A stretch of DNA of 64,000 nt from an uncultured Solirubrobacterales bacterium (lineage in GTDB: Bacteria > Actinomycetota > Thermoleophilia > Solirubrobacterales > 70-9). The position numbers were made by a program, and so were the translations under genes. Below, one piece after another: positions 3,200-63,379 of the stretch. The notes under the pieces are model-generated. The model saw nothing but the letters and a program-made list of their open reading frames with translations, was not told the origin of the DNA and made no database searches. The stretch's first letter is position 1. Each line of letters opens with the position of its first letter. The stretch lies in assembly GCA_963753585.1 (NCBI GenBank), contig CAVWCU010000001.1, forward strand, positions 72,959-136,958, written 5' to 3'.

Positions 3200-3208
3200 G
3201 TTCTTTCC

Positions 3209-14332: not shown

Positions 14333-15445
14333 ATGTCAGCGCTTCCTGGGGATGAGCTTCATGAGTTGTCCGAACGCCAAGATCCCCGTCTACTGAGAGC
14401 TCTCGACGTGGTCGCGCCGGGCGGTGCCCTGCGCGAGGGGCTCGACAACATCGTCCACTCCCGCACCGGCGGCCTGATCGTCGTCGGCGACCCGGGCGAC
14501 ATCTCCCACCTGCTCTCCGGAGGGATCAAGCTCGACATCGACTACACGCCGGCGATGCTGTACCAGGTGGCGAAGATGGACGGCGCCATCGTGCTCAACG
14601 CCGAGGCGACGAAGATCGTCTGGGCCAACGTCCAGCTGATGCCCGACCCGACGATCCTCTCGGCCGAGACCGGCACCCGCCACCGCACGGCCGAGCGCGT
14701 CTCCAAACAGACCGAGGCGCTGGTCATCGCCATCTCCCAGCGCCGCGACGTCGTCTCCCTCTACGTCGAGGGGACGAAGTACATCCTGCAGGACATCCCC
14801 GCGGTGTTGGCCAAGGCGAACCAGGGCCTGGCGACCCTCGACAAGTACCGCGCCCGGCTCGACCAGGTCTCCAATCGGCTCACCGTGCTCGAGTTCGAGG
14901 GTGGCGGGGTGCTCTACGACGCGCTCGCCGTCCTCCAACGCGCCGAGCTGGTGACCCGGATGGCGGTCGAGGTCGAGCGCTACATCGTCGAGCTCGGCAC
15001 CGAGGGCCGCCTGATCGAGATGCAGCTGGAGGAGACGATGGTTGGCGTCGCTGCCGACAAGTCGTCCCTGATCCGCGACTACAGCGTCGAAGACTCCGAG
15101 GAGAACCTGGCGACGGTGCTGCAATCGCTGGCGCGGTTGCCGCACCAGGACGTGCTCGACTTCGGCCGCCTCGCCGAGCTGCTCGGCTACGACCGCAAGC
15201 TGAACACCCTCGACTTCCCGGTCGCCCCACGGGGCTACCGCGTGCTCGGCCGCGTGCCGCGCATCCCCAAGCTTGTCGTCCAGAAGATCATCCACGAGCT
15301 GGGTGGGCTGGAGGAGGTCCTGGCTGCCTCCGACGCCGACCTGGAGGCCGTCGAGGACGTTGGTCCGACTAGGGCAAAGGACATCCGCGAGGGTCTGCGC
15401 AGGCTTCAGGAGGTCGACATGGTTGACCGGTATCTACAGAGCTAG
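14333..15445 (+). CDS. disA: DNA integrity scanning protein DisA (diadenylate cyclase)
   Basis: 370 aa. DAC domain motifs (GGLIVVGD, DGAIVL, GTRHRTAERVS), linker, and a C-terminal HhH domain. No radA is adjacent. Confidence 0.93.
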   Translation: MSALPGDELHELSERQDPRLLRALDVVAPGGALREGLDNIVHSRTGGLIVVGDPGDISHLLSGGIKLDIDYTPAMLYQVAKMDGAIVLNAEATKIVWANVQLMPDPTILSAETGTRHRTAERVSKQTEALVIAISQRRDVVSLYVEGTKYILQDIPAVLAKANQGLATLDKYRARLDQVSNRLTVLEFEGGGVLYDALAVLQRAELVTRMAVEVERYIVELGTEGRLIEMQLEETMVGVAADKSSLIRDYSVEDSEENLATVLQSLARLPHQDVLDFGRLAELLGYDRKLNTLDFPVAPRGYRVLGRVPRIPKLVVQKIIHELGGLEEVLAASDADLEAVEDVGPTRAKDIREGLRRLQEVDMVDRYLQS

Positions 15446-15607
15446 ATGGCTGACTCAAATTTGACGCACCCACGGATGACACGCCCGGCACGGCGCTGGA
15501 CACCACCCACGGCCTCGCGCGTAGCGTTGCTACGCGCAGCGGCCGCGTGCGGCACCCAGCTTGGCCTGGCGCGTCCCCGCAGGCACGTCAAATTTGAGTC
15601 AGCCATC
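15445..15607 (+). repeat. Long-hairpin intergenic element, family A/F, copy F
   Basis: Perfect 22-nt terminal arms GATGGCTGACTCAAATTTGACG and CGTCAAATTTGAGTCAGCCATC flank 119 nt. The interior has an apical hairpin GCGCGTAGC-GTT-GCTACGCGC and the backbone motif GCTTGGCCTGGCGCG shared with A1/A2. It starts at the last base of the disA stop codon. Confidence 0.85.
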
Positions 15608-15672: not shown

Positions 15673-16215
15673 ATGGAGGTGGGCTTCGAGTCGGACGTCC
15701 CTTACGTCTGCGACTTCGAAGAGGGGGACAAGGTCGTCTATCCCCACCACGGCGCTGGCCTGGTACTGAAGAAAGAGTCTCGTGAGCTGATGGGGGAGGA
15801 GCGGGACTACCTGACGATCAAGATCCTCCACAACGAACTCACGGTGATGGTCCCCTGCGAGAACGCCGGTGTTGCCGGCCTTCGGCGGGTCATCGACGAG
15901 GTGGAAATCAAGAAGGTCACGGACGTCCTCACCGATGAGGTGTCTGACATGCCGAAGAACTGGAACCGGCGCTTCAAGTACAACCGCGAGAAGATCAAGA
16001 CCGGCGACGTGTTCGAGTTGGCCGAGGTCGTCCGCAACCTCGCGATCCGCGAGATGGAAAAGGGCCTCTCCACCGGCGAGAAGCAGATGTACACGCGGGC
16101 GAAGAAGATCCTCGCCTCGGAGTTCATGTACGCGCTCGACAAGGACGAGGAGGGCGCGGAGGAGTACCTCGACGGCCTGCTGGAGGAGCGCTTCGCCGCC
16201 ACGGCGACCGCGTAG
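15673..16215 (+). CDS. carD: CarD/CdnL family RNA polymerase-binding transcription regulator
   Basis: 180 aa. Tudor-like N-domain VVYPHHGAG...YLTIKI and a helical C-domain. GAGGAGG RBS upstream. carD-ispD synteny as in actinobacteria. Confidence 0.93.
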   Translation: MEVGFESDVPYVCDFEEGDKVVYPHHGAGLVLKKESRELMGEERDYLTIKILHNELTVMVPCENAGVAGLRRVIDEVEIKKVTDVLTDEVSDMPKNWNRRFKYNREKIKTGDVFELAEVVRNLAIREMEKGLSTGEKQMYTRAKKILASEFMYALDKDEEGAEEYLDGLLEERFAATATA

Positions 16216-24379: not shown

Positions 24380-25084
24380 GTGGCTCTATCTTCGCCTACC
24401 CAGGAAATGCAACTCCCCACCGGCCGTCTCAACGGCTCGCTCAGGCCGGCCGACTCTAACCCTCAACCCGAGCTTGATGACCATTATCTGGTCGCCCTCG
24501 CCAAGGACGGCCGCGCCGATGCCTACGACGCGATCGTGCGACGCTACCGCGGCTTCGTCCGCCTCAAGGCCTCGTCCTACTTCCTGCTCGGGGGCGAGTC
24601 CGACGACCTGATCCAGGAAGGTCTGCTCGGCCTCTACAAGGCGATCCGCGACTATCGCACCGACCGCGAGTCGAGCTTCCGCAACTTCGCCGAGCTTTGC
24701 ATCACGCGCCAGATCATCACCGCGGTCAAGACCGCAACCCGCAACAAGCACACGCCGCTCAACCAGTACGTCTCCTTCAGTCAGACCCCGGCTGCGGCGG
24801 GCGACTCCGACACCACGCTCGACGAGATCCTGCCCGGGCCAACCGTCCACGACCCGGTCAACCAGGTGATCGCCTCCGAAGAGCTGGAGAGCCTCGTCTC
24901 CTGTCTCTCGGGCGTCTCCGGTGTGCTCTCCGACCTCGAGAGCCGGGTTCTCTCGCTCTACCTCGACGGGCACTCCTACGAGGCGACGGCAGAGCGGCTG
25001 GAGTGCGACACCAAGACCGTCGACAACGCCCTCCAGCGCGTCAAGCGCAAGGTAGGCGCCCACCTCACCTCCCGCGAGGCCTGA
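24380..25084 (+). CDS. sigH: Sigma-70 family sigma factor of the Bacillus SigH (Spo0H) type
   Basis: 234 aa. The stretch DDLIQEGLLGLYKAIRDYRTDRESSFRNFAELCITRQIITAVKTATRNKHTPLNQYVSF and the C-terminal LSDLESRVLSLYLDGHSYEATAERLECDTKTVDNALQRVKRK match my recollection of B. subtilis SigH almost motif for motif. AAGGAG RBS, GTG start. Confidence 0.85.
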   Translation: MALSSPTQEMQLPTGRLNGSLRPADSNPQPELDDHYLVALAKDGRADAYDAIVRRYRGFVRLKASSYFLLGGESDDLIQEGLLGLYKAIRDYRTDRESSFRNFAELCITRQIITAVKTATRNKHTPLNQYVSFSQTPAAAGDSDTTLDEILPGPTVHDPVNQVIASEELESLVSCLSGVSGVLSDLESRVLSLYLDGHSYEATAERLECDTKTVDNALQRVKRKVGAHLTSREA

Positions 25085-25182
25085 GGCAGTCCGGCCGGCG
25101 CATATCGGCGTCCTCGGTCGCTCGCGTGCGGAGCACGCCACGCTCCCTGCGTCCTTGATCTGCTTGGCCGGACAGCCTCAGG
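25080..25182 (+). repeat. Long-hairpin element, family A/F, short copy A3
   Basis: Imperfect 17-nt arms CCTGAGGCAGTCCGGCC and GGCCGGACAGCCTCAGG. The interior shares GCGTCCTCGG ... CTCCCTGCGTCCTTG ... GCTTGGCCGG with A2. Spans from the sigH-like stop (25082-25084) to the stop of the convergent GNAT gene (25178-25180). Confidence 0.7.
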
Positions 25183-26167
25183 GGAGATCGGAGAGCACAT
25201 AGTCGAGCAGTTCCCGGCCGTGCTCGGAGGCGACGGAGACGTCGTCGGCCTTGATCCGGGCACGGTGCAGAGACTGCATGCGCAGCACGTCGCCGTCGCA
25301 GTGGCTGTTGGGAAAGACGCCGGCGTAGGAGACGCCCAGCCGCTCCAGGTGGTCGGCTACGAGGGCGGTGGCCGGCGTGTCGAGCGGCAGGTCGAGGTAG
25401 ACGGCGTCGAGGCCGAGGCGGTGGAAGAGGTGGTGGCGCTCGGCGGCGACCGCGGTCTCGAGGTCGGCGCCGGGGGTGTGAACCGTGATCAGCGCCAGGT
25501 TGTGGTCGGCGTCGACCGCCACGTGCAGCTCGGTCCGGTCCCGCAGCGCTGCATCCGCGGCGGGCTCGGCGAGCGTGCCGCGTAGCTCGCAGAGCTCCAG
25601 CGTCCGGCCGACGATCTCCCGGTGGCGCTCCGGAGCGTAGACCGGTCGCTCATGGCCGTCGTTCAGCTTCGTGTAGAAGAGCGCCGCCGACTGGCGTCCG
25701 CGCGGCCCGTCGCCGGCGGCATCGTTCGAGACCGAGGCCGGGATCCAGCCAAGCAGGAAGCCGGTCTCGTGAGCGCCCAGCTCGACGTTGGCGCGCTGGC
25801 TGTAGGGGTGTGCGGCGGTCGCCTCGCTGTACATGCCCGCCATCCCCTGGCCCGCCGCCCAGTCCATGAGAAAGCGCTTGGTCCTGGTGAAGAGGTGCTG
25901 CCCCCGCGCCGCCGGCATCGTCACCGCCTGCCCGGAGTGACCGACCGCATCGCCTGCTGCCGCCAGGCTCATCCCCTCGTGGCAGAGCAGCTCCCCCGCG
26001 GCTGTCTCGGCGACGCACGAGACGTACGTTCCCGCCGCCAGCCGGGCCGAGACCTCCTCCGGGTCGTAGACCCAGCGCACGTCATAGCTCTCCCCGTAGG
26101 CGACCCGGATCGCCTCGCTGAGCACCGCCCCCTCGTTGGGCTCGAGGAAGCGGAAAAGTACGTCCAT
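25178..26167 (-). CDS. GNAT-family N-acetyltransferase-like protein (two-lobed)
   Basis: Start set to ATG 26167 (MDVLFRFLEP...), 329 aa. Has an acetyl-CoA-pocket-like segment (VTMPAARGQHLFTR). The assignment rests on pattern only. Confidence 0.5.
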   Translation of the reverse strand: MDVLFRFLEPNEGAVLSEAIRVAYGESYDVRWVYDPEEVSARLAAGTYVSCVAETAAGELLCHEGMSLAAAGDAVGHSGQAVTMPAARGQHLFTRTKRFLMDWAAGQGMAGMYSEATAAHPYSQRANVELGAHETGFLLGWIPASVSNDAAGDGPRGRQSAALFYTKLNDGHERPVYAPERHREIVGRTLELCELRGTLAEPAADAALRDRTELHVAVDADHNLALITVHTPGADLETAVAAERHHLFHRLGLDAVYLDLPLDTPATALVADHLERLGVSYAGVFPNSHCDGDVLRMQSLHRARIKADDVSVASEHGRELLDYVLSDLP

Positions 26168-26239
26168 AGGGGGCACGATGTCATAGACGGCAGTGCATTG
26201 CCGAAATGTTCTGTCTGCAGCGAGGGCTATGCTGCCGAT

Positions 26240-26677
26240 ATGTCTCTGGCTCTGCCCAAACCGACCCTCACCTCTCATCCGGTTGACGTGGGACACCGGG
26301 CGGAGGCCGCAATCCTCGCTGAGCTGGTCAAGCGCGGCTATCGCGTTCTACTGCCGTTTGGCGTCAATCAGCGCTACGACTTGGTTCTCGACTGCGACGG
26401 CCGATTCCTCAGGGCGCAGTGCAAGACAGGGCGCCTTCGCGAAGGCGTTATCCAGTGCAGCACTCAGAGCATCCAGTCGAACACCCGGGGCACCCGCTGG
26501 CGCAGCTATACCGGGGATATAGACCTCTTCATCGTCTATTGCCCACAGAATGATTCTGTCTACGTCATACCTGCGGACGAGGTGCCGAGTAGAGAGATGT
26601 ACCTGCGTGTGAATCCTCCACGCAATCGACAGGACAAGCGCGTACGCTGGGCAAAGGATTACAAGCTGCCCGCCTAG
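26240..26677 (+). CDS. PD-(D/E)xK endonuclease of the group-I-intron-associated (PDDEXK_5 / I-Ssp6803I-like) type
   Basis: 145 aa from internal ATG 26240. Core GHRAEAAILAELVKRGYRVLLPFGVNQRYDLVLDCDGRFLRAQCKTG (D...D...QxK) and the tail RVRWAKDYKL resemble that family as I recall it. Third-codon-position GC is visibly lower than in neighbours. The stop codon lies inside the tRNA-Thr acceptor stem. Confidence 0.6.
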   Translation: MSLALPKPTLTSHPVDVGHRAEAAILAELVKRGYRVLLPFGVNQRYDLVLDCDGRFLRAQCKTGRLREGVIQCSTQSIQSNTRGTRWRSYTGDIDLFIVYCPQNDSVYVIPADEVPSREMYLRVNPPRNRQDKRVRWAKDYKLPA

Positions 26678-30475: not shown

Positions 30476-32140
30476 ATGGACCCCTCTCGCCTTCAGGCGT
30501 ACCACCAGTACACCCGCGATCACGGGGTCAACCCGATCCTGTATCTGCTGGCCCGGGTTTTCATGACCCCCTTCTTCCTCGTCTACTTCCGCTACTCGAG
30601 GACCGGCCGCGAGCACGGACGCATCAAGGGCGGCCTGATTGTCGCCGCCAACCACCGCAGCTTCCTCGACCCGTTCGCGATCGGTGGCGCCCTCCCCTGG
30701 CGGCGGCCGATGAACTACGTCGCCAAGGTCGAGCTCTTCGAGCGGCGCTGGCAGGGGTGGATCCTCTCTCGCCTCGGCGCCTTCCCGATCCGGCGTGGCG
30801 AGTCCGACGAGGACTCGGTGGAGACGGCGCGCCTCCTCGTCGAACGGGGCGGCGCCGTCTGCATCTTTCCGGAGGGCACCCGGATTCGCCGCGGCTCGCT
30901 GGCCGAGCCCAAGCGCGGCGTCGGCCGCCTGGCGTTGATGACCGGTGCCCCCGTCATTCCGGCTGCCGTTCTCGGTACAGAACGCGTGCGCCGCGGCTGG
31001 CGGATCCGCCCCCACAAGATCAGGGTCCGCCTCGGCAAGGCGATGACCTTCCCCCGGGCGGAGGATCCCTCGCACGGGCTTGCCGCAACGGCGACCGGGC
31101 GGATCTGGCCCAACGTCGAGCTCCAGTGGGAGGACCTCGGCGGCCTGCCCCCGATGCGCCGTGCGGCGGTGATCGGGGCCGGCAGCTGGGGCACCGCCCT
31201 CGCAGTGCTTCTCGCACGCAGCGGCCTCGAAGTCCAGCTGGCGACCCGCACCGCGGAGCAGGCGACCGAGCTCGGCGAGGTACGCGAGAACCGCCGTTAC
31301 CTGGAGGGCGTGCGCCTGCCCGACTCGGTCCAAGTTCGGCAGGCCTCAGAAGTCGAGCTGGCAGGCCTCGACCTGGTTTGTCTGGCGATCCCTTCGGGTT
31401 CGCTGCCGCAGGCGGTCGGGGGCATCGCCGACCGGATTGGCACGCGCGCAGCGGTGCTGCTTCTGACCAAGGGACTGGTCGCGCCGCAGGGCCTGCTTCC
31501 TGCCGAGTACGTCGGCGAGCGGGTGCGGGCGCGCGCGATCGCCTCCCTGGGTGGGCCGGCCCACGCCCGTGAGGCCGTTTCCGGCTCGGCGGCGCTCGTG
31601 CTCAGCTCAGACGACGACGACCTGCGCGACCAGCTCGGCGGGGTTTTCGATCGTGCCGGCTTGTTCTGCGAGCGCTCGCGCGACGTGGCTGGGGTCGAGA
31701 TGGCCGGAGCCGCGAAGAACGCCGCGGCTCTCGCCGCCGCCGCCGCCGAGCCGCACGGGCTCAACGCGGCGGGGATCGCCGCTGCTCAGGTCTGGCGCGA
31801 GTGCATCGACCATGCGATCGATCGCGGCGCCGAGCTCGAGACGTTCGCCGGCCTCGCCGGGGTCGGTGACCTCACCGCAACGGTGATGGCGCCGGAGGGC
31901 CGCAACCGGCGCGCCGGCGAGCTGCTTGGGCGCGGCACCCCGGCGAGCGAGATACCGGGAATCATCGGTCAGGCTTCGGAGGGCCTAGACGCGGTTCCGC
32001 TGCTGGCAGCGGCGACCGCGGCGGGGGGCGGTAAGGCGGAGGCGCTGTCCCGCCTCGCCGCGCTGATCCGCGGAGAGATCGACGCCGATGCATGGGTCGC
32101 GGGCCTGCGCCGGGTCGAGCGCGCGCGGGAGGCAGCGTGA
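30476..32140 (+). CDS. plsC/gpsA: Fusion protein: 1-acyl-sn-glycerol-3-phosphate acyltransferase (PlsC) domain + NAD(P)H-dependent glycerol-3-phosphate dehydrogenase (GpsA) domain
   Basis: One uninterrupted 554-aa frame. The N-part has acyltransferase motifs NHRSFLDP and FPEGTR. From about residue 222 it reads MRRAAVIGAGSWGTALAVLLA, then a full GpsA-like sequence (NxxYL, GGPAHA, KN..A). Confidence 0.85.
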   Translation: MDPSRLQAYHQYTRDHGVNPILYLLARVFMTPFFLVYFRYSRTGREHGRIKGGLIVAANHRSFLDPFAIGGALPWRRPMNYVAKVELFERRWQGWILSRLGAFPIRRGESDEDSVETARLLVERGGAVCIFPEGTRIRRGSLAEPKRGVGRLALMTGAPVIPAAVLGTERVRRGWRIRPHKIRVRLGKAMTFPRAEDPSHGLAATATGRIWPNVELQWEDLGGLPPMRRAAVIGAGSWGTALAVLLARSGLEVQLATRTAEQATELGEVRENRRYLEGVRLPDSVQVRQASEVELAGLDLVCLAIPSGSLPQAVGGIADRIGTRAAVLLLTKGLVAPQGLLPAEYVGERVRARAIASLGGPAHAREAVSGSAALVLSSDDDDLRDQLGGVFDRAGLFCERSRDVAGVEMAGAAKNAAALAAAAAEPHGLNAAGIAAAQVWRECIDHAIDRGAELETFAGLAGVGDLTATVMAPEGRNRRAGELLGRGTPASEIPGIIGQASEGLDAVPLLAAATAAGGGKAEALSRLAALIRGEIDADAWVAGLRRVERAREAA

Positions 32141-32169: not shown

Positions 32170-32338
32170 CTAGTAGGGATTGGCGAAACCCATGTGTGCG
32201 GGCCAGCGAGCGCCGGACCAAGCGGAGCAAGGACGCAGGGGACCCGAATAGCGCTGCTATTCGGGTCCCCGAGGACGCAGCCCCGCGCCGTGTCCGCCGC
32301 CGCTGGACGCGTGCGGGGGTTTCGCCAATTCCTACTAG
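32170..32338 (-). repeat. Long-hairpin intergenic element, family A/F, copy A1 (inverted relative to A2)
   Basis: 22-nt arms CTAGTAGGGATTGGCGAAACCC and GGGTTTCGCCAATTCCTACTAG (1 mismatch). Apical hairpin GGGGACCCGAATAGC-GCT-GCTATTCGGGTCCCC. The interior aligns along its length to the reverse complement of 46048-46214. Confidence 0.9.
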
Positions 32339-32347: not shown

Positions 32348-32908
32348 GTGAGCGGCGCAGCGGAGAACGTCGAGCCGGCAAGTCTCGACCCGGCCGCCAA
32401 GGCGGAGCTGGACCGGGCTTTCGAGGATCTCTACCGGGCGCACCTGCGCGACGTCTACTCCTACGCCTACTACCGGGTCGGCAACCAGCACGACGCCGAG
32501 GACCTCACCGAGCAGGCCTTCCTGCAGGCCTACCGGCACTTCGATCGCGCTCGCCGCGAGTCCGACGGCCGACCGCTGCGTCCCTGGCTGATCCGCATCG
32601 CCCACAACCTCGCCTCGAACTACTACCGCGACCGTTCGCGCCGGCCGCAGACCTCGTTGGAGGTTGCCGACCCGATTCCCACACGGCACGGCACCGAGGC
32701 GATCGCCGAGGGGCGCGAGGAGCTTCGACAGGTGATGGCGAACCTCGAGAACCTCTCCGACGACCGCCGCGAGGTGCTGATCATGCGCTTCGCGCTCGGC
32801 ATGGACAATCGCGAGATCGCACGCGCCCTGGGCCGGAGCGACGGGGCCACCAAGGTGCTCATACACCGGGCGATCAAGCAGCTCCAGGAGGAGATGGCCG
32901 ATGAGTGA
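32348..32908 (+). CDS. ECF-type RNA polymerase sigma factor
   Basis: 186 aa. Region 2 (DAEDLTEQAFLQAY, PWLIRIAHN) and region 4 (REVLIMRFALGMDNREIARALGRSDGATKVLIHRA). GTG start. Confidence 0.85.
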   Translation: MSGAAENVEPASLDPAAKAELDRAFEDLYRAHLRDVYSYAYYRVGNQHDAEDLTEQAFLQAYRHFDRARRESDGRPLRPWLIRIAHNLASNYYRDRSRRPQTSLEVADPIPTRHGTEAIAEGREELRQVMANLENLSDDRREVLIMRFALGMDNREIARALGRSDGATKVLIHRAIKQLQEEMADE

Positions 32909-44429: not shown

Positions 44430-44681
44430 CTAGTGGTGGGCGATGCCCATGGTGCCGCGGGGATCGCCGCTGTGCTCGGCGAGATCCTCGAGCTCGGCGA
44501 TCTTGCGCTCCCCTTCGATCCGGGCCGGGTCCTCGGCGGCCAGCGGCGCGATCAGCCGGCGGATCCGGTTGCGGACCTGGAGGGCGAAGTGTGGGGTGGA
44601 GGCTCCGGCGAGCGCCCGGATGTCCTCGGCGGTGACCGGATCGGTTGCTCCCAGCAGGGCGGGGCTCTCGGCTTCGCTCAC
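44430..44681 (-). CDS. Small hypothetical protein (83 aa)
   Basis: GTG 44681 overlaps the stop of the upstream CWB2 gene (GTGA), suggesting translational coupling. No motif recognised. Confidence 0.4.
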   Translation of the reverse strand: MSEAESPALLGATDPVTAEDIRALAGASTPHFALQVRNRIRRLIAPLAAEDPARIEGERKIAELEDLAEHSGDPRGTMGIAHH

Positions 44682-46018
44682 GGTTCCGTCCCTCCGATCC
44701 TGGCCAGTTCGGCCAGCTGGTCGATCTCGGCTTGCTGGTTCACGTCGATGGCCTCCTGATCTCCGATCACCCACACGTGGTTGTAGAAGGCGCGGGTCGG
44801 ATCTGTCGTGTACCCCGGCTTGACGTCGAGCAGGTACTCGCGCAGCGCCGCCGGCAGCGTACCGGCGTCGTCGGTGAGCAGCAACGGACCCCACGTCCCC
44901 GATGCCGAGAGCGGCGAGGCGACGGCCGCGGCCAGCGGCGCGTCGCTGCGTGCGACGACGAAGCCGTGGCCGGGGTCGTTGACGTTCCAGCCGAAGCCGC
45001 CGCCGGCGTAGCGGGCGAGCGCGATCGCGTTCGCGACCGGATCCTCGCCGGAGACGCGCCGGACGCGCCCGCCGAGCTTGCCGACTTCCCGCACCACGCT
45101 CGAGGAGATCGCCGAAGACGGGCCGAGCACGTAGACGGGGACCTTCGGGTGCGTGCGCAGCGCCTGCGCGGTCGGCGTCGGCAGCTTCTCGGCCCCGCTG
45201 AAGAGCACCGGGTCGCCTGAGCGTGCCGCCCAGGCAGCGGCTGGGATGGCGAGCTCCGGCTTGGCTTCGGGAGCAAGGATGAAATGGGCCGGGGGACCGT
45301 CGAAGAGCTTGTCGCGCTCGGCTGCGATCGAGGCCGCGAGCGCAGCGGCCCCGGGTGCATCGACCCGGTTGGCCTTCAGCTCGCCCGGAGTTGCCGCGTC
45401 GCCGATGACGAACGCCTGGGTGCCGCCGGCCTCGACGCTGCCGCGCGGGGCCAGCGCGGCGAGGGCCTGCTCGGTCGGCTCGGGCAGGTCGTCTCCAGAG
45501 GAGACCAGAAGCGGCGAGCGCAGCGGTTCCGCCATCAGCACCGAGGCCGCGACCGCCCCCTGCCAGTCGTCCTCGTCGACGATCGTGACCGACGTGGGCC
45601 GCTGTGCCGCGGTCGCCGAGGGGAAGACGGCGAGGGTCACCGCCGCGGCGATCGCGACGGGGTCCGACCCGCCGACCCGCGTCGTGTTGTTGGTCGCGAA
45701 GGAGGGGTACCCCAGCTCTTCGGCCGCCTCGGCCGCGGGAGTCTCCACCTCCTCGGCAGTCGTCTCGGGGGAGCCCTGCGTGGGTGCCGGCGCGGGCTCG
45801 GGCGCGTCCTCGTTCGACCCACCGCCTCCGAGCACGGCCGCGACGAGGAATACGACCGCGACCGCGACCAGGCCGGCAACCGCCTTCAGGGCCGCGGGCA
45901 CCGGCCTGCGGCGGCGTCTGGGTTGCTTTTTCGCCGGGGGTGGCGGTTTTGGCTGGGACTCGCTCGTCTCCGCCGATGCCGACGGGAGGTCGGCGTTGAT
46001 GGGGCGCTTCCCGGGCAC
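44678..46018 (-). CDS. Membrane-anchored protein with putative cell-wall-binding (CWB2-like) repeats
   Basis: 446 aa. Basic cytoplasmic N-tail, one TM, a Pro/Glu linker, then three similar modules (RVGGSDPVAIAAAV..., LKANRVDAPGAAALAASIA..., VSGEDPVANAIALARY...) reminiscent of CWB2 repeats. Confidence 0.65.
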   Translation of the reverse strand: MPGKRPINADLPSASAETSESQPKPPPPAKKQPRRRRRPVPAALKAVAGLVAVAVVFLVAAVLGGGGSNEDAPEPAPAPTQGSPETTAEEVETPAAEAAEELGYPSFATNNTTRVGGSDPVAIAAAVTLAVFPSATAAQRPTSVTIVDEDDWQGAVAASVLMAEPLRSPLLVSSGDDLPEPTEQALAALAPRGSVEAGGTQAFVIGDAATPGELKANRVDAPGAAALAASIAAERDKLFDGPPAHFILAPEAKPELAIPAAAWAARSGDPVLFSGAEKLPTPTAQALRTHPKVPVYVLGPSSAISSSVVREVGKLGGRVRRVSGEDPVANAIALARYAGGGFGWNVNDPGHGFVVARSDAPLAAAVASPLSASGTWGPLLLTDDAGTLPAALREYLLDVKPGYTTDPTRAFYNHVWVIGDQEAIDVNQQAEIDQLAELARIGGTEP

Positions 46019-46047
46019 GGACCGGAAAGCTACAGCGGGGCGGTGGC

Positions 46048-46214
46048 CAGGAGGGACTAGCGAAACCCCCGCCCACGCCTGGCGGCGGCGGACACTGCGC
46101 GGTACAGCGTCCTCGGGAGGCCGAATAGCGCTGCTATTCGGCCTCCCTGCGTCCTTGTCCCGCTTGGTCCGGCGCTCGCCAGCCGCCCACGCGGGTTTCG
46201 CTAGTCCCTCCTGG
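46048..46214 (+). repeat. Long-hairpin intergenic element, family A/F, copy A2
   Basis: Perfect 22-nt arms CCAGGAGGGACTAGCGAAACCC and GGGTTTCGCTAGTCCCTCCTGG. Apical hairpin GGGAGGCCGAATAGC-GCT-GCTATTCGGCCTCCC. Lies in a divergent intergenic region. Confidence 0.9.
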
Positions 46215-46235
46215 CTGGTCAGCTAATCTTCATTC

Positions 46236-46257
46236 GACTGGTTGACTGACCAGTCAA
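46236..46257. promoter_or_regulatory. Operator-like overlapping palindromes upstream of an acyl-CoA dehydrogenase gene
   Basis: GACTGGTTGACTGACCAGTCAA contains GACTGGT-N6-ACCAGTC and TTGACTG-N2-CAGTCAA. It lies about 40 nt upstream of ATG 46296 and is low-GC for this genome. Confidence 0.5.
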
Positions 46258-46295
46258 TCAAGACCGGTGAGAGGCGCCGACCAAGAGGGGACCCA

Positions 46296-47561
46296 ATGGA
46301 TTTCGCACTTAACGAGGAGCAGCAGGAGTTCAAGGAGCGCTGCCGGACCTTCGCCCGCGAGGTGATCCGGCCCGCGGCCCGCAAGCACGACGAAGAGGAG
46401 AGCATTCCCTGGGAGGTGATCAAAGAGGCGCGCAAGCAGGGCTTCGGCGGCCTCGAGGCGATCCAGCGCTCGGCCGGGGACGGCGAGGGCCAGATGCAGG
46501 TGATCTCGGCCGAAGAGTTCCACTGGGGCTGCGCCGGCATCGCCCTGGCGATCTCCGGCTCCGGTCTTGCGGCGGCTGGGATCGCGTCCTCGGGCACGCC
46601 GGAGCAGATCGGCCAGTGGGTTCCCGAGTGCTTCGGCAGTGGCGACGAGATCAAGCTCGGCGCCTACGCGGTCACCGAGCCGCAGGCCGGCTCCGACGTG
46701 AAGAGCCTGAAGACGACGGCGAAGCGCGACGGTGACGAGTGGGTCCTCAACGGGACCAAGGTCTTCATCACCAACGGTGGGATTGCCGACGTCCACGTCG
46801 TCGTCGCCACTGTCGACCCGGCGCTTGGCACCCGCGGCCAGGCCTCCTTCGTCGTCGGCAAGGACACCCCTGGCCTGACCCAGGGAAAGAAGGAGTCCAA
46901 GCTCGGCATCCGCGCCTCCCACACGGCCGAGATCGTGCTCGACGACTGCCGCATCCCGATCGAGAACCTGCTCGGCGGCGAGGAGAAGCTGGAGCGCAAG
47001 CTGCAGCGTGGGCGGGAAGGAAAGAAGTCGCGTGGCGCCGACGCGCTCGCGACCTTCGAGATCACCCGCCCGCTGGTCGGCGCCTCGGCGCTCGGCATCG
47101 CCCAGGCCGCCTACGAGTGGACGCTCGAGTACCTCGACGGCCAGACCGAGGACGGCAGGCCGCTGCTCGGAGAGCAGCGCATCCAGCAGACCCTGGCCGA
47201 CGTCGCCACCGAGATCGAGGCCGCGCGCCTGCTTGTCCAGCGCGCCGCCTGGATGGGACGCAACGGCATCCCGATGACGGGGGGCCAGGGCTCGATGTCG
47301 AAGCTCAAGGGTGGCGACGTGACGATGTGGGCGACGACCACGCTGATGGACCTCGTCGGCCCCTATGCCTGGAGCAAGGACTGCCCGCTGGAGAAGTTCT
47401 TCCGCGACGCGAAGATCTACCAGCTCTTCGAGGGCACCGCCGAGATCCAGCGCATGGTCATCTCGCGCATGCAGGCCCGCGAGTACGCCGACCGCCTCGG
47501 GTATGCCGCTGAAGTCGCTGACCAGGCGATGGCGGAGAAGAAGGAGCCAGTTCCCGCTTAA
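46296..47561 (+). CDS. Acyl-CoA dehydrogenase
   Basis: Start set to ATG 46296 (MDFALNEEQQEF...). Motifs YAVTEPQAGSDV and QLFEGTAEIQR. Confidence 0.9.
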   Translation: MDFALNEEQQEFKERCRTFAREVIRPAARKHDEEESIPWEVIKEARKQGFGGLEAIQRSAGDGEGQMQVISAEEFHWGCAGIALAISGSGLAAAGIASSGTPEQIGQWVPECFGSGDEIKLGAYAVTEPQAGSDVKSLKTTAKRDGDEWVLNGTKVFITNGGIADVHVVVATVDPALGTRGQASFVVGKDTPGLTQGKKESKLGIRASHTAEIVLDDCRIPIENLLGGEEKLERKLQRGREGKKSRGADALATFEITRPLVGASALGIAQAAYEWTLEYLDGQTEDGRPLLGEQRIQQTLADVATEIEAARLLVQRAAWMGRNGIPMTGGQGSMSKLKGGDVTMWATTTLMDLVGPYAWSKDCPLEKFFRDAKIYQLFEGTAEIQRMVISRMQAREYADRLGYAAEVADQAMAEKKEPVPA

Positions 47562-50596: not shown

Positions 50597-50620
50597 CCGG
50601 TTTCACTTTCGAGTTGAGGT

Positions 50621-50698
50621 GGGCTGTCGGGTGCCCCTCCCCAAAACGCGCGGCGGGAGCCGCGCTTGAGTGTTTTGGGGAGGGGCATCCGACAGCCC
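50621..50698 (+). repeat. Hairpin unit C, copy C1
   Basis: 27-nt arms GGGCTGTCGGGTGCCCCTCCCCAAAAC and GTTTTGGGGAGGGGCATCCGACAGCCC (1 mismatch) around a 24-nt loop. Homologous to 63642-63717 on the opposite strand. Confidence 0.85.
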
Positions 50699-50862
50699 TT
50701 CTCGAAGCACAAAGCTCCGAAAAGCTTCTTGCAACCGAGGCGCCACCGGCTCCCCGAAAGCCCCACATGCCCTAGCGCCTGTTACGGGCGCCCCAAGCTT
50801 TAAAAAAAGCTTGGGGACCCTGGAGCCGGCTTCGCAGTCTGGGCGTAGCTCGGTGACGTGTT

Positions 50863-51007
50863 GGGAGGAGCCTGGCCGTCCTCCAGACGAATGTCGCGAA
50901 GCGGCGGAAATGCAATCCGGTGATTGCGCGGCCGTCAAGGCCGCGCTCCTGGTTGCACCGCGCTCGCGCGCGGTGCTCAATTCGACTGGAGGACGGCCAG
51001 GCTCCCC
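50863..51007 (+). repeat. Hairpin unit B, copy B1
   Basis: Arms GAGCCTGGCCGTCCTCCAG and CTGGAGGACGGCCAGGCTC flank 99 nt that hold two internal stem-loops. The reverse complement differs from 63402-63500 at about 8 positions by eye. Confidence 0.9.
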
Positions 51008-51047
51008 ACCATCCGCCCTTGTCACGCAACCGTCACAATGCCCGCCT

Positions 51048-56015: not shown

Positions 56016-56114
56016 AGATTTGTCCTGAGCGGGCCTCGATCGGCTCTATAATTCGCCGACTTGTCAACCCGTCGCGCGCCCGCTCGGAGAAGGCGTGGAA
56101 ACCGGGAGGTCAGC

Positions 56115-59100
56115 TTGTCCGATACCCAGTCCCGTGAGCTTCACGGCGAGGGCCCCGTCCGCTACTCGCCAGAGCGCGCCTACCGGCCGCTTGTCTCTCC
56201 GCCCAGCGTCGAGGACAAGGACGCGTGCGCGATCTATGCGTCCGTGCGCAAGGACGCGACGCCGAGCCACGCGCCCATCGAGCTGGCGATCCCGGCCCTG
56301 CAGAAGATGCTCCACCGTGCCGGCAACGTCGACGGCGAGGGCGACGGCTGCGGGCTGCTGCTCGACCTGCCGCGCAAGATCTGGGCCGAGGAGGTCCGCT
56401 CGGGGGGGCACGACCCCTCGCTCACCCTTGACGACGCCTTCGCCGTCGCCCACGTCTTCATTGAGCGCTCCCAGGACCGCGAGCGGATCCAGCACGATGC
56501 CCGCGAGCTGCTCGGCCAGGGCGGCTTCCGCATCCTTGCCGAGCGGATCGGCGTCGTCGACTCCTCGGCGCTCGGCCCGACCGCGCGCGAGGAGGAGCCC
56601 CACTTCTGGCAGCTCGCCGGCCTCGTCGCCGATGCCTCTCGCCGCGACCGCGTCCTCTTCGACCTGCTGATCGAGCTGGAGGAGAGGCTGGGGGTCCACG
56701 TTCCCTCCTTCTCCGCCACCACCTGCGTCTACAAGGTGATGGGGGCGCCCAGGGTGCTCGGCGCGTACTACCCGGACCTCCTCGACGAGCGCTTCGAGAC
56801 GATCGGCTGCTTCGGCCACAACCGCTACTCGACCAACACCTGGCCCTCGTTCAAGCGCGTGCAGCCGTTCTCGGTGCTCGGCCACAACGGCGAGATCAAC
56901 ACGATCGCGCAGCTGCGCCAGGAGGCGAAGATGCTCGGCGTGCCGATCCATCCCGACGGCTCGGACTCCCAGGACCTCAATCGCACGATCGACACCCTCG
57001 TCAGCCGTGACGGCCTCAGCCTCGCCGAGGCGATGGAGATGGTGGTGCCGCCGATCGTCGAGGAGATCCGCTCGCTGCCCGAGGACCTGCGCCCGTTCTA
57101 CATGTACCTGCGCCAGGCGATGGGCCCGTTCGCCCAGGGCCCTGTCGCGCTGATCGCCCGCCACGCCGAGGAGTGCGTGTTCTCCTCCGACGCTCTCGGC
57201 CTGCGGCCGCTGTGGCAGGTCGAGACCGGTGAGGACTTCGTCTTCAGCTCCGAGCCTGGCGTCGTCCCCGTCGCGGCGATGGTCTCCGAGCCCAAGCCGC
57301 TCGCCCCGGGCGAGAAGGCGCTGGTGCTGATCAACCGCTCCGCCAAGCGCTCCACCCTCCACGCCCATGACGAGATGTTGCGCATCGTCCGCAAGAGCTG
57401 GCTGCGCCGAAACGGCATCGAGGCGCTCGCCGACTACGGTCGCGCCCTGGAGTCCGGCGGCCCGCTCGAGGGCGAAGAGGTCCCCGGCTACTCCGACGCC
57501 GGCCCCGAGGAGCCGGTCAAGGTTGCAGACCGCGTCCTCGCCGGCTTCGGCTGGCAGCGCGACGACGTCAAACTCGTCCAGCAGATGGCCTCCAACGGGT
57601 CCGAGCCGGTTGGCTCGCTCGGCTACGACGGTCCTCTGGCCGCGCTCTCGCCGGAGCGCCAGAACCTCGCCGACTACTTCAAGGAGACGGTCGCCGTCGT
57701 CACCAACCCGGCGATCGACCGCGAACGCGAGATGGAGCACTTCTCGACCCGAACGGTCTTCGGCCGCCGCCCCTCGATCGACGCCGCCGGCGTGGACACG
57801 GGCACGGTCGAGACCGCGTTCCCGGTGATCCTCGGCGGCCACCACGGCCTGGCGCCGCTCTCCGACAAGACCTACCGGGCGATCGCGCGCAAGCACCGGA
57901 CCTACCTGCTCGAGGATCTCTGGGAGGAGTTCCGCGGTCGCGCCGACGCGCTCGACATCTCCCTGCTCGAGTCCGAGACCACGCAGGGCGCGATCGAGCG
58001 GATCAAGCAGGAAGCGGTGAAGAAGGTTCGCGACGGAGCCGAGCTGCTCGTGCTCACCGATCGCACCGTCTATGACGCCGACCGCCGCTACCTCGACCCC
58101 CACCTGGCCACCTCGGCGGTCGACCAGGCGCTGAAGGGATTCAGGGTCGAGGCCGGCGAAGAGAACCTGCGCCGGCGCTGCGGCGTCGTCCTGCGCTCGG
58201 CGGCGATCCGCAACGTCCACGACACGATGCTCGCCCTCGGTCTCGGCGCCAACGGCGTCTGCCCGTACACGATGGTCGAGGTCGTCTGCGTCGAGGACTA
58301 CGAGAAAGACGTCTCCAACCTCTGTGACGCGCTCACCAAGGGGATGGAGAAAGTGATCTCGACGATCGGGATCCACGAGGTGCGCGGCTATGCGCGCCAG
58401 TTCTCCTCCATCGGCGTCAAGCCGGAGCTGGCCGAGATCTTCATGACCGAGGCCTTCGCCGCCTCGGAGTCCGGCGGCGTCGGCTTCACCGGCCTCGACG
58501 AGGACACCAACGAGCGCGCTCGCATCCTCGCCGGCGAGGGGGAGGCCAAACCGGCGAAGACGTTCCGCTTCTACCCCAAGGTCTACAAGGCCGCGATAGC
58601 CACCGCGAACGGTTCGGGCTCCTACGAGGAATACTCGGAGAAAGTGCGCGATCTCGAGCGGCAGAGCCCGATCTCGATGCGCCACGTCATGGGCCTGAAG
58701 GGAGACCGCGACCCGGTCGACCCGGCCGGCGTCGACGCCGGGGTCGGCCGCCACGACTACCCGGTCGTGATCTCCTCGATGAGCTTCGGCTCGCAGTCCG
58801 AGCCGGCCTTCCGCGCCTACGCCGAGGCGGCGAAGGCGATCAACGTCCTCTGCGTCAACGGCGAGGGCGGCGAGATCCGCGACATGTACGGCCACTACCG
58901 CAAGTGGCGTGGCCAGCAGGTCGCCTCCGGCCGCTTCGGCGTCTCGGCGGAGATGCTCAACTCCTCCTACCTCGCCGAGATCAAGATCGGCCAGGGCGCG
59001 AAGCCCGGTGAGGGCGGCCACCTGCCCGGCAAGAAGGTCTCCGAGAAGGTCGCCGCTGCCCGTAACGCGGCGCCCGGCACCGACCTGATTTCTCCCTCCA

Positions 59101-60785
59101 ACAACCACGACCTCTACTCGATCGAGGACCTCGCCGAGCTGATCGACGAGCTGAAGACCGTCAATCCCGACGTGCGGGTCTCGGTCAAGGTCCCGGTGGT
59201 GCCGAACATCGGCACGATCGGCCTCGGCATCGCCAAGGCCGGTGCCGACATCATCACCCTCTCGGGCTTCGAGGGCGGCACCGGCGCCGCTCGCCAGCAC
59301 GCGCTGCGTCACGTCGGCCTGCCCTCCGACATCGGCACCCGGGCGGTGCACAGGGCGCTGATGGAGGCCGGCATCCGCAACCGGGTCGAGATCTGGGCCG
59401 ACGGTGGCTACCGCCACGGCCACGACATCGTCAAGCTGCACTGCCTCGGCGCCAACCGGGTCGGCTTCGGCACCCTGGCGATGGTCAGCCTCGGCTGCAC
59501 GATCTGCCGCGGTTGCCAGCTCGACACCTGTCACGTCGGCATCGCGACGCAGATCGAGACGGTCGAGCAGGCGCAGGAGCACGGCCTGAAGAAGTTCACG
59601 CCGCAGGAGATCGACACGGCCGCGGAGAGCTGCGCCCGTTTCTTCTCGGCGATGGGCGAGGAGGTCAAGCAGGTCGTCGCCTCGCTCGGCTACGAGCGTG
59701 CCCAGGACCTGGTCGGCCGCTACGACCTGCTCGAGCAGGTCTCCCACCACGAGACCCTTGACCTGGCGTCGCTGATCACGCCGCTGGAGGAGTTCCTCGA
59801 CCTCGAGCCGCTCGATCTGCCGGTGGCGGAGGAGATGGCGGAGGAGCGGGCCGAGGCGGGCCTAGTCGTTGCCCGGCCGATCCGCATGGAGCCCAAGCAG
59901 GCCTCGACCCAGATCGCTGGCCTGGCCGGCGATATCTGCTCCGGCCGCACGATCCGCAACGAGTTCCCTCGCGCTACCGACGCCAACGACCGTGTGCTCG
60001 GCACCGAGCTGTCGGGTGCGATCGCGCGCTCGCGGATCTTCGAGGACGGGCCGGAATCGAATGACGACGTGCTCGCCAGCCTCGAGTTCAACGGCGGCTC
60101 GGTCGCCGGCCAGGGCTTCGGCGCCTTCAACGCCTACGGTGTCTCGATCCGGGTCGAGGGCGGTGCCCAGGACGGCGTCGGCAAGACCATGCTCGGCGGC
60201 AGCGTCGCCGTGCTGAAGGGCAAGGGCGCAAAGGGCAAGCGGCTGAACGGGTCGGTCGGCAAGTCCTTCGCCTACGGCGCCCAGCGCGGCCGCCTCTTCG
60301 TCCAAGGGTCTGCCGACTCGCGCTTCTGCATCCGCCTCTCCGGTGCCGACGTCGTCCTCGCCGGGGAGCCCGAGGAGGACATCGACGACGGCCGCGGCTG
60401 CATCGTCGACCGCGCCAATGCCAAGGGCTTCGCCTTCGAGTACATGACCTCGGGCCGGGCGATCGTCCTCGGCGACCTCGGTCCCTGGGCCTGCGCGGGC
60501 ATGACCGGCGGCCGCGTCTACGTCCGCCACAACGCCTTCGGCATCGACCGCGAGGCGATTGTGCGGCGCCTGGGCGAGGGGGCCAAGGTCGAGCTGAAAG
60601 AGCTCGACGCCGAGGGCCTGCTCGACGTCGACGACCTGCTCGCCGGCTACGCGAAGGAACTGCGGGCGACCGGACAGGACGAGGAGGCTGAGCGAGTCGT
60701 CGGCCTCGCGGCCGACGCGGCCGAGAACTTCCTCATGGTCGTACCGCACAAGGTCCAGGCTGACCCCAGCATCTCGACCGAGTAG
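56115..60785 (+). CDS. gltB: Glutamate synthase large-subunit-like protein (GATase-2, central, FMN/Fe-S and GXGXG domains)
   Basis: The ORF is open from 56061. TTG 56115 lies 5 nt after GGGAGG and is preferred. Amidotransferase Cys in DACAIYASV, NRYSTNT, the FMN domain (ISSMSFG, GEGG), CxxxxxC...C cluster residues, and the C-terminal GXGXG beta-helix. No gltD is adjacent. Confidence 0.88.
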   Translation: MSDTQSRELHGEGPVRYSPERAYRPLVSPPSVEDKDACAIYASVRKDATPSHAPIELAIPALQKMLHRAGNVDGEGDGCGLLLDLPRKIWAEEVRSGGHDPSLTLDDAFAVAHVFIERSQDRERIQHDARELLGQGGFRILAERIGVVDSSALGPTAREEEPHFWQLAGLVADASRRDRVLFDLLIELEERLGVHVPSFSATTCVYKVMGAPRVLGAYYPDLLDERFETIGCFGHNRYSTNTWPSFKRVQPFSVLGHNGEINTIAQLRQEAKMLGVPIHPDGSDSQDLNRTIDTLVSRDGLSLAEAMEMVVPPIVEEIRSLPEDLRPFYMYLRQAMGPFAQGPVALIARHAEECVFSSDALGLRPLWQVETGEDFVFSSEPGVVPVAAMVSEPKPLAPGEKALVLINRSAKRSTLHAHDEMLRIVRKSWLRRNGIEALADYGRALESGGPLEGEEVPGYSDAGPEEPVKVADRVLAGFGWQRDDVKLVQQMASNGSEPVGSLGYDGPLAALSPERQNLADYFKETVAVVTNPAIDREREMEHFSTRTVFGRRPSIDAAGVDTGTVETAFPVILGGHHGLAPLSDKTYRAIARKHRTYLLEDLWEEFRGRADALDISLLESETTQGAIERIKQEAVKKVRDGAELLVLTDRTVYDADRRYLDPHLATSAVDQALKGFRVEAGEENLRRRCGVVLRSAAIRNVHDTMLALGLGANGVCPYTMVEVVCVEDYEKDVSNLCDALTKGMEKVISTIGIHEVRGYARQFSSIGVKPELAEIFMTEAFAASESGGVGFTGLDEDTNERARILAGEGEAKPAKTFRFYPKVYKAAIATANGSGSYEEYSEKVRDLERQSPISMRHVMGLKGDRDPVDPAGVDAGVGRHDYPVVISSMSFGSQSEPAFRAYAEAAKAINVLCVNGEGGEIRDMYGHYRKWRGQQVASGRFGVSAEMLNSSYLAEIKIGQGAKPGEGGHLPGKKVSEKVAAARNAAPGTDLISPSNNHDLYSIEDLAELIDELKTVNPDVRVSVKVPVVPNIGTIGLGIAKAGADIITLSGFEGGTGAARQHALRHVGLPSDIGTRAVHRALMEAGIRNRVEIWADGGYRHGHDIVKLHCLGANRVGFGTLAMVSLGCTICRGCQLDTCHVGIATQIETVEQAQEHGLKKFTPQEIDTAAESCARFFSAMGEEVKQVVASLGYERAQDLVGRYDLLEQVSHHETLDLASLITPLEEFLDLEPLDLPVAEEMAEERAEAGLVVARPIRMEPKQASTQIAGLAGDICSGRTIRNEFPRATDANDRVLGTELSGAIARSRIFEDGPESNDDVLASLEFNGGSVAGQGFGAFNAYGVSIRVEGGAQDGVGKTMLGGSVAVLKGKGAKGKRLNGSVGKSFAYGAQRGRLFVQGSADSRFCIRLSGADVVLAGEPEEDIDDGRGCIVDRANAKGFAFEYMTSGRAIVLGDLGPWACAGMTGGRVYVRHNAFGIDREAIVRRLGEGAKVELKELDAEGLLDVDDLLAGYAKELRATGQDEEAERVVGLAADAAENFLMVVPHKVQADPSISTE

Positions 60786-63365: not shown

Positions 63366-63379
63366 GCGGTGAGGGTTGG

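Follow-up and report, generated by a model that had tools for sequence, protein, structure and literature searches.

A Family of Hairpin Repeats with a Conserved Centre and Free Ends in Thermoleophilia: Possibly Mobile and Selected for Its Fold

The window considered here is a 64,000-nt stretch from an uncultured Solirubrobacterales bacterium, with a G+C content of about 70%; it covers the actinobacterial ftsH-folP-clpC-disA-carD-cysS region. A1, a 169-nt near-perfect palindrome at 32170-32338, has relatives elsewhere in the window and in many other genomes. In these elements the fold, not the sequence of the arms, is conserved. The best explanation is that A1 belongs to a class-wide Thermoleophilia family of non-coding hairpin repeats that are polymorphic for gain and loss, non-autonomous, mobile and selected for their structure. 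The probability of this explanation is put at about 0.48, a figure that covers the features described below together with the general reading of them as mobile, non-autonomous and structure-selected.

A1 forms a long hairpin with three tiers. The fold of the A1 region (179 nt) is computed at -121.1 kcal/mol, compared to -76.4 +/- 4.6 kcal/mol for shuffled sequences (z = -9.7), and none of 200 shuffles folds as well. The element starts 29 nt past the stop codon of the gene at 30476-32140 and ends 9 nt ahead of the GTG of a sigma-factor gene (32348-32908). Its orientation is of a rare type, with the core strand sense relative to these tandem genes. The direct repeat GGACGCAG, which a first-pass annotation made from the sequence had described around the apical hairpin, is real and occupies 32231-32238 and 32273-32280. 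In the outer arm, a 6-bp window (ATTGGC in A1) differs among copies, and the partner arm compensates.

A second long copy, A2, fills the divergent gap between the genes at 44678-46018 (- strand) and 46242-47561 (+ strand). Its termini read CCAG...CTGG, not CTAG...CTAG, and its fold reaches -134.9 kcal/mol (z = -11.9). A1 and A2 are mutually inverted, as had been noticed: a repeat finder pairs 32201-32336 with 46049-46184 (136 nt, 81% complementary), and A1 is identical to the reverse complement of A2 at 134 of 172 positions, or about 78%. When the two are compared on the minimum-energy structure of A1, 53 pairs are unchanged, 1 is changed on one side, 10 are changed on both sides and still paired, and 2 are broken. 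The earlier figure of about nine compensated pairs is thus upheld; the 10 counted here are 4 in the outer arms, 2 in the middle stem, 1 in a loop-adjacent helix and 3 in the apical stem. A perfect operator-like palindrome, TTGACTGACCAGTCAA, adjoins A2 at 46220-46262, upstream of the acyl-CoA dehydrogenase gene (46242-47561), and is unrelated to the repeat family.

The short element A4 has the same centre, or inner backbone, as A1 and A2, and its terminal CCTGAGG and CCTCAGG hold the TGA stops of both of the convergent genes around it (24380-25084 on the + strand and 25178-26296 on the - strand). The pattern CCAAGCNGNNCAAGGACGCAGG matches only A1, A2 and A4 in the window, with a chance expectation of 0.03, and the covariance model described below scores A4 at 121 bits, A2 at 62 and A1 at 60. 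A3, in whose terminal CTAG the TAG stop of disA (14333-15445) sits, resembles the family in its architecture, in its CTAG-type ends and in the apical TAGCGTTGCTA, but retains no more than remnants of the core, and scores 20.6 bits (E = 0.024). The claim that four copies share one backbone therefore holds for A1, A2 and A4, by pattern and by model score, but A3 is at most a distant relative. Similarly, the three-tier form of 165 nt by which the family had been defined does describe the fold of A1 and A2, but the defining part is the asymmetric centre, and the commonest form is the one of about 103 nt seen in A4.

Beyond the window, a scan of species-representative genomes with the same pattern, CCAAGCNGNNCAAGGACGCAGG, found at least 118 loci. 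Nearly all of them belong to metagenome-assembled genomes (MAGs) labelled Solirubrobacterales, Conexibacter, Thermoleophilaceae, Gaiellales or unclassified Actinomycetes, with one Chloroflexota label among the matches listed. The contig with this last label (L117, JBLMYD010000042.1) is probably mis-binned, since its flank is 87-90% identical to the Solirubrobacterales loci L037 and L121. A covariance model (R1) trained on 38 short forms was run over about 0.93 Mb of fetched loci and identified 136 copies, of which 14 lack the pattern by which the loci were ascertained; five loci contain a second pattern match. Extra copies occur about once per 50-60 kb, and extrapolation from this density suggests some tens to about a hundred copies per genome. 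Searched with Rfam 15, the window gave only tRNA at the gathering threshold, and the A4 and A1 regions gave nothing relevant at E up to 10. No description of the family, nor of Thermoleophilia repeat families, was found in the searchable literature.

The conserved part of the family is a centre of about 72 nt, not the ends. It reads (A/G)CCAAGC(A/G)GNNC-AAGGACGCAGGGAG-apical hairpin-CGAC(C/T)GAGGACGC(C/A)G-NNN(T/C)GCGCCGG, so that two direct repeats, AAGGACGCAGG and GAGGACGC, flank an exchangeable apical hairpin, with a short covarying helix alongside. The short form adds to this centre a closing stem of about 15 bp, the sequence of which is unique to each copy, even inside one MAG; its arms have only a loose CTGA(G/C)G tip in common. 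The long form adds the apex GAATAGC...GCTATTC, a conserved inner shell and an outer arm (G/T)AGGG-NNNNNN-GAAACCC, in which the middle 6 bp are hypervariable with compensation, and some copies have unrelated arms. Many long forms have CTAG on both flanks, with the consensus end (G/T)AGGGATTGGCGAAACCC. A further shell type, CTAGATGRTYGATTCCACGG..., resembles the ends of A3, and a scan of metagenomes found other shells that share only the minimal module GCAAGGACGCAGG-hairpin-CCGAGGACGCCG. Across the family the elements are roughly 100-170 nt long and the apical loops are mostly of 3 nt. On one metagenome contig (Ga0207700_10000027, locus L128), two long forms at 580-612 and 1289-1321 lie 709 nt apart and have private interior variants in common. 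They differ in the 6-bp window of the outer arm (CTTGTT in one, ACTGGT in the other), where the partner arm matches with T.G wobbles on the core strand. Within this genome, the arm window seems to diverge faster than the interior.

The strongest numbers on the fold come from an alignment of 98 copies fitted to the covariance model. In it 93.5% of the cells pair, compared to 66.7 +/- 0.6% in shuffles, 771 cells are changed on both sides, compared to 235 in shuffles, and such two-sided changes are found in 28 of the 31 model pairs. When the 3' partners are slid by 1-3 columns, 27-43% of the cells pair. RNAalifold recovers the same helices from an independent MAFFT alignment, with 21 of 33 pairs compensated, and in 22 long forms the count is 32 of 62. 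Helix P2 (GCNGNNC / GNN(A/C)NGC) covaries as AT/AT, TT/AA, AC/GT, GC/GC, AG/CT and other combinations, and is flanked by conserved loops that are direct repeats of each other, not complements. Since P2 covaries between non-complementary loops, copying from arm to arm cannot explain it, and the pairing itself is selected. In ten pairs of orthologous sites, identity is 60% in the arms, 92% in the 5' half of the core, 82.5% in its 3' half and 75% in the coding flank. This means that the arms change faster than the coding flank and stay complementary, and that the core is conserved above it. Selection on the folded structure and templated regeneration of it had both been offered in the first-pass annotation. 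The former is borne out by the pairing frequency, the number of pairs changed on both sides and the behavior of P2; the latter does not agree with the strand-biased G:T mismatches in the arms (see below) or with the asymmetric loops. The opinion that this is no ordinary miniature inverted-repeat transposable element (MITE) with fixed terminal inverted repeats has also stood, as the ends vary and the centre is conserved.

The position of the elements relative to genes is just as regular. The coding strand of the 300-nt flanks was inferred from codon-phase G+C, a method checked on known genes. By this measure 50 copies lie between convergent genes, 40 between tandem genes with the core antisense to both, 6 between tandem genes with the core sense and 9 between divergent genes. 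The gene beside the 3' arm (on the core strand) reads toward the element in 98 of 117 assignable cases, an antisense to sense ratio of 98:19, and the gene on the side of the 5' arm shows no orientation bias (64:59). At a distance of more than 1.5 kb, only 54% of 300-nt tiles are on the antisense strand, and the replication-linked skew at third codon positions (GC3 skew) in the orientation of the core is only -0.019. The difference between the adjacent gene and distant tiles therefore ties the orientation to the abutted gene, and replication direction as its cause is ruled out by this difference and by the small GC3-skew component.

The link to the abutted gene extends to its stop codon. Among 29 convergent short-form cases, 28 of the 29 genes on the side of the 3' arm have their stop within the element, compared to 13 of the 29 on the side of the 5' arm (Fisher p = 2e-5). 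The stop offsets have two maxima, +2 (the TGA of CCTGAGG) and +12 (another TGA, read in a different frame). For long forms, the terminal CTAG typically serves as the stop. The tips of the elements usually supply or restore the stop of the abutted gene, a T from the target being completed by GA, AA or AG from the element. Within the window, A4 and A3 are typical, with the sigma-factor and disA stops in their tips, A1 is a rare sense copy and A2 lies between divergent genes.

The two strands of the elements are unequal. Counted on the core strand, the mismatches of the closing stem comprise 55 of G:T and 19 of A:C (strand-symmetric ungapped method, p = 3e-5), and the model alignment gives 117:39. 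The excess persists in convergent contexts (30:10) and in tandem contexts with an antisense core (19:7). Deamination as its source is ruled out, because transcription-linked and replication-linked deamination, acting on the non-template or lagging-template strand, predict the opposite sign and both contexts agree. In the long form, G.U pairs are retained in most copies of many genomes, for example three in a 7-bp stretch of the inner shell. RNA folding favors the core strand over its complement: the advantage is 3.0 kcal/mol in short forms, where the core strand is ahead in 47 copies and behind in 19, and 14.0 kcal/mol in long forms (24 copies compared to 0). The core-strand loops are rich in purines (AAGGACGCAGGGAG, GAGGACGC), and tandem G.A is frequent in P2. 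The strand that folds best is the one outside the mRNA of the abutted gene, the antisense strand. As to whether the active form is RNA or single-stranded DNA, the G.U-type pairs favor RNA, and the orientation relative to the gene argues against a simple sense-RNA role. Two familiar kinds of hairpin were considered and rejected. A canonical Rho-independent terminator, which is a GC-rich hairpin with a U-tract behind it, is ruled out, as the elements have no T-tract, T being not enriched in the 12 nt past either arm. As for a hammerhead, twister or other ribozyme, CUGAGGA does resemble the hammerhead CUGANGA box, but most copies read CCGAGGA, stem II is absent, and no Rfam match was found at E up to 10.

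The evidence for mobility comes from relatives collinear with the window, which were located by way of two proteins with identical counterparts there, the sigma factor (32348-32908) and CarD (15673-16215). A1 is missing in four of them (L001-L004), which have a single CTAG where the window reads CTAG[TAGGG...CCCTA]CTAG. A4 (ggCCTGAGG...CCTCAGGgga) is missing in L001, where the site reads ccggtCTAGGgga, and in L002, where the sequence has diverged. A3 (agCTAG[ATGG...CCAT]CAGacgg) is missing in L123, where the site was read as agCTGAacgg, and the gap between disA and carD is only 63 nt in L123, L124 and L125. The elements are therefore gained or lost between close relatives. For A2, the flanking acyl-CoA dehydrogenase gave no identical protein in a look-up, so there is no empty site to compare. 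The empty sites of A1, A3 and A4 contain no pre-existing hairpin, and the arms therefore belong to the element. This rules out both the insertion of the core into pre-existing terminator hairpins, since the arms arrive with the element, and the copying of the arms from flanking DNA. A check for insertion polymorphism had been proposed in the first-pass annotation; with A1, A3 and A4 missing at collinear sites, the result adds mobility or removability to the reading of these as structured elements, and polymorphism at CTAG-type sites makes them mobile or removable repeats, not merely structured RNAs.

The junctions fit insertion in the middle of CTAG (CT/AG) without duplication, with the tips GA..., AA... 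and AG... rebuilding TGA, TAA and TAG on both sides. The A1 junction fits a CTAG duplication, a TA duplication and no duplication equally well. The A4 junctions, CTGAGG...CCTCAG, form an inverted, not a direct, repeat; those of A3 read CTAG...CAG, and A3 needs one further change under CT/AG insertion. In L001 at 3205-3215, the site orthologous to 25080-25182, the convergent genes overlap, and a palindromic CTAG is the stop on both strands. Such shared CTAG stops look like preferred landing sites.

Turnover is also seen at orthologous sites of different species. At one orthologous site the whole element is inverted between species (L057 5238-5340 and L122 4847-4949), and its private T.G arm mismatches move along with it. 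At another (L037 2794-2896 and L121 7530-7653), the arms are kept with compensated changes and the apex module is swapped; the different, longer apex module of the L121/L037 pair (GGGGAGCGCAC...GTGCGTGACCC) resembles a nested partial copy of the core. A long form with a degenerate core (L092 5350-5655) has in its apex a nested insertion of about 150 nt, part of which is a further perfect hairpin (CCCCGCATCCGACATTGACCC...GGGTCAATGTCGGATGCGGG). It appears that landing or exchange takes place preferentially in apices. The coordinates of the elements in the window and of the parts of A1 are collected in Table 1.

Table 1. Coordinates of the four elements in the window and of the parts of A1
Feature	Position	Strand	Basis or remark
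A1, long-form element	32170..32338	+	sequence read, fold computed; the purine-rich core strand is the + strand
Left CTAG junction of A1	32170..32173	.	right CTAG at 32335-32338; relatives have one CTAG
Outer arm of A1, TAGGGATTGGCGAAACCC	32174..32191	+	partner 32317-32334 (GGGTTTCGCCAATTCCTA)
Core region of A1	32203..32306	+	match to covariance model R1, 59.8 bits; inner shell, helix P2, both loops and apex
5' strand of helix P2 of A1, GCGGAGC	32222..32228	+	pairs with 32280-32286 (GCCCCGC); covaries across the family
5' conserved loop repeat of A1, AAGGACGCAG	32229..32238	+	invariant alignment columns
Apical hairpin of A1, GGGGACCCGAATAGC-GCT-GCTATTCGGGTCCCC	32238..32270	+	apex is an exchangeable module across the family
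3' conserved loop repeat of A1, GAGGACGCAG	32271..32280	+	direct repeat of the 5' loop, not its complement
A2, long-form element	46046..46215	- (core strand)	repeat pairing, fold, model match of 62 bits at 46079-46182
A4, short-form element	25080..25182	-	model match of 121.3 bits; commonest form in the family
A3, palindromic element of similar build	15442..15607	-	distant relative; 20.6 bits at 15475-15578

A possible mechanism can be sketched. A structure-specific enzyme whose gene lies elsewhere in the genome would act in trans on the folded centre of one strand, recognising the loops and a few fixed base pairs and not the sequence of the arms. The hairpin would be inserted at sites resembling CT/AG, and insertions would persist mainly where the stop codon is regenerated. 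The orientation that survives would put the weaker-folding, pyrimidine-rich strand in the host mRNA and so keep a strong purine hairpin, similar to a Shine-Dalgarno (SD) sequence, out of it. This single-strand, enzyme-mediated mechanism, taken alone, is tentative and clearly less probable than the general explanation. Equally doubtful, if attractive, is the wider proposal that these are a new class of hairpin element in which activity resides in one folded strand, the antisense strand relative to the abutted gene. It would be either a mobile single strand, inserted by a structure-reading enzyme into stop sites that its own tips repair, or a domesticated RNA hairpin that shields the 3' ends of genes from antisense or convergent transcription.

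The partner that such a mechanism calls for was looked for in several ways. A Pfam scan of 20 open reading frames (ORFs) of the window found no transposase or recombinase; an earlier statement that the window holds no RAYT, IS200/IS605 TnpA or integrase gene is upheld for these 20 ORFs, the rest of the window lying outside that scan. The Pfam gene lists of syntenic relatives contain no transposase genes. A Y1-transposase domain is likewise absent from the 20 scanned ORFs and from the Pfam lists of the neighbours, the host genome having been seen over 64 kb. All-against-all clustering of 880 ORFs from the loci returned housekeeping families only, which disposed of a neighbouring partner gene. 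A search for a full-length insertion sequence (IS) with shell ends in about 1 Mb of loci found none and yielded the nested hairpin of L092 instead.

Of course, a number of points weigh against the explanation preferred here. The searches just described found no enzyme. Near-identical copies at different sites were not seen, so recent transposition is inferred from presence and absence alone, and the gains are not polarised by an outgroup, which leaves precise deletion in the relatives as a possibility. The junctions do not fix the chemistry of insertion: A1 is compatible with three models, and A3 and A4 need an extra substitution or a diverged ancestor. The model alone does not account for the antisense position of the folded strand relative to the abutted gene; for this it needs added selection on orientation. 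With DNA parameters, the strands of A1 are equal (-65.2 and -65.5 kcal/mol), so RNA is a more natural fit to the asymmetry of the strands than a DNA intermediate is. The statistics are also somewhat inflated, as orthologous loci were counted as separate observations.

The most serious of the rivals is a functional structured RNA made from the core strand, with mobility secondary. Such an RNA could, for example, stop or process transcripts that enter the 3' end of the gene from the opposite direction, or bind a protein through three GGA or SD-like purine loops. Covariation, the tolerance of G.U and the fixed G.U pairs on the core strand only, the purine-rich internal loops with tandem G.A in P2, and the conservation of the core above the coding flanks at orthologous sites would all be expected of it. 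So would the exact anchoring at the stop of the gene to be shielded and the orientation, and in the half of the copies that lie between convergent genes the transcript of the other gene would include the core strand. However, in the 40 tandem contexts no annotated gene transcribes that strand, and the 5' flank is variable with no conserved upstream promoter. The lack of a T-tract past the hairpin, apical loops of mostly 3 nt, gain and loss between close relatives and the lack of a matching Rfam family count against it as well, and it is rated as rather unlikely. A folded single-strand recombination site similar to attC, in which a tyrosine recombinase or an HUH enzyme would cut and join the antisense strand, ranks next and is distinctly improbable. 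It would account for variable sequence with a conserved fold and unequal strands, for a folded strand antisense to the upstream ORF with the stop inside the site, and for junctions that are compatible with no target duplication. But the boxes RYYYAAC / GTTRRRY are not matched by the ends, conservation lies in the centre here and at the termini in attC, and the copies are scattered among housekeeping genes with no cassette arrays. Also, there is no integrase in the 20 window ORFs scanned, and it is the hairpin alone that comes and goes, not a gene together with its site.

Third in order, and about as improbable as the attC-like site, is an ordinary MITE derived from an IS630/Tc1-type parent (with TA duplicated in CTAG) or an IS5-type parent (with CTAG duplicated), in which the apparent covariation would reflect sub-families formed by fold-back from the ends of different parents. 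IS630 prefers CTAG with duplication of TA, and IS5 gives 4-bp duplications of the CTAG type. Insertion polymorphism at CTAG and the many CTAG-flanked long forms with their consensus end would fit such a MITE. This origin is hard to square with arms that differ in every short copy, even inside one MAG, and with the conservation of the centre instead of the ends. The inverted junctions of A4, the covariation of P2 between asymmetric conserved loops, the strand-biased mismatches and the fact that about 1 Mb of loci yielded no element that is longer and has matching ends also speak against it. Least probable of all are passive palindromes, whose arms would be kept complementary by template switching, gene conversion between arms or repeated fold-back, with no selection on the fold. 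Near-perfect arms with fast drift (60% identity at orthologous sites, below the coding flanks), the inversion of a whole element at one site and the other hairpins nested in apices would suit them. Yet copying between arms would erase the asymmetric loops and give no bias of G:T over A:C, and it leaves unexplained the G.U pairs retained across many genomes and the covariation of P2 between non-complementary conserved loops.

Gene ends in the host genome abound in hairpins of several unrelated families. A second palindromic family in the window has two mutually inverted copies of 156 nt (50859-51014 and 63373-63528) that are 91% complementary and have their own terminal arms of about 33 nt (GTTGGGGGGAGCCTGGCCGTCCTCCAG...), without the AAGGACGC core. 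A third (50616-50703 and 63642-63717; GGGTGCCCCTCCCCAAAAC...GTTTTGGGGAGGGGCA) has arms of 30-32 nt that are 91-97% complementary. Its copies lie roughly 130-150 nt from those of the 156-nt family, upstream near 50.7 kb and downstream near 63.6 kb, and the two families may form a composite unit. A long intergenic inverted repeat at 60790-60898 (31-nt arms, 94% complementary) stands directly after the stop of an ORF of 1574 amino acids (56061-60785), and another at 2271-2411 (50-nt arms, 76% complementary) follows ftsH.

Thermoleophilia are abundant, barely cultured soil Actinomycetota, and the family described here inverts the usual logic of small repeats by having a conserved centre and free ends. 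Its hundreds of copies, with arms that evolve faster than coding DNA and remain paired, provide a clean natural experiment on compensatory evolution, and its insertion is coupled to stop codons such that the host gene is preserved. The folding strand and the transcribed strand are in conflict, which points to either an unrecognised mechanism of single-strand mobility or a strand-specific control of transcription at gene ends, and both options can be tested in cultured Solirubrobacter or Conexibacter. If an active antisense strand is confirmed in either version, this would be a class-wide system with no described counterpart, which goes beyond another MITE. On the practical side, the elements break short-read assemblies and mislead the annotation of gene ends in Thermoleophilia MAGs.

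As a kind, the elements are bacterial interspersed palindromic mobile repeats, and there is a real chance that their mechanism is new. Functionally, the closest known systems are REPINs and MITEs such as Correia and ERIC, although the family lacks the features that define each of them. Like the REP/REPIN-RAYT system, the family consists of short, abundant extragenic hairpins near the 3' ends of genes, with two inverted halves. These hairpins encode nothing, and their movement presumably depends on an enzyme supplied in trans from a single gene copy and acting on a folded single strand. In REPINs, however, the arms are conserved (REP, with 5' GTAG or GTGG) and the loop is variable, whereas here the centre is conserved and the arms vary. 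The tips are CTGAGG or CTAG(G/T)AGGG and not a REP arm with GTAG, and a RAYT gene did not appear in the sequence examined, which was the window and 8-kb flanks. Anchoring at stop codons and an orientation linked to the gene are features of this family, not of REP.

The Correia elements of Neisseria, RUP and ERIC/IRU are alike in being long imperfect palindromes of 100-170 nt, inserted polymorphically at a short specific target beside or overlapping gene ends, and for ERIC a conserved central inverted repeat has been described. Unlike these, the present family has no fixed terminal inverted repeats, shows compensatory change in all helices and unequal strands, and gives no demonstrable target duplication; judging from the Rfam result, with no direct comparison to ERIC and Correia, no sequence similarity was detected. 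With MITEs in general it shares presence/absence polymorphism at collinear sites, but its copies have no fixed terminal inverted repeat in common, and about 1 Mb of loci yielded no parent IS. In attC sites, the fold is conserved over the sequence, one folded functional strand is antisense to the upstream ORF, and the stop often lies inside the site. The attC boxes R''/L''...L'/R' (RYYYAAC ... GTTRRRY) are not matched here, and the copies are single and dispersed, with no arrays and with no intI in the window ORFs scanned. The PATEs of IS200/IS605, which move by single-strand "peel and paste," are similar in their hairpin-dependent, strand-specific and target-specific insertion, possibly with no duplication. 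They have a separate subterminal hairpin at each end, compared to one long hairpin here, and their orientation follows replication, whereas the orientation of this family follows the adjacent gene.

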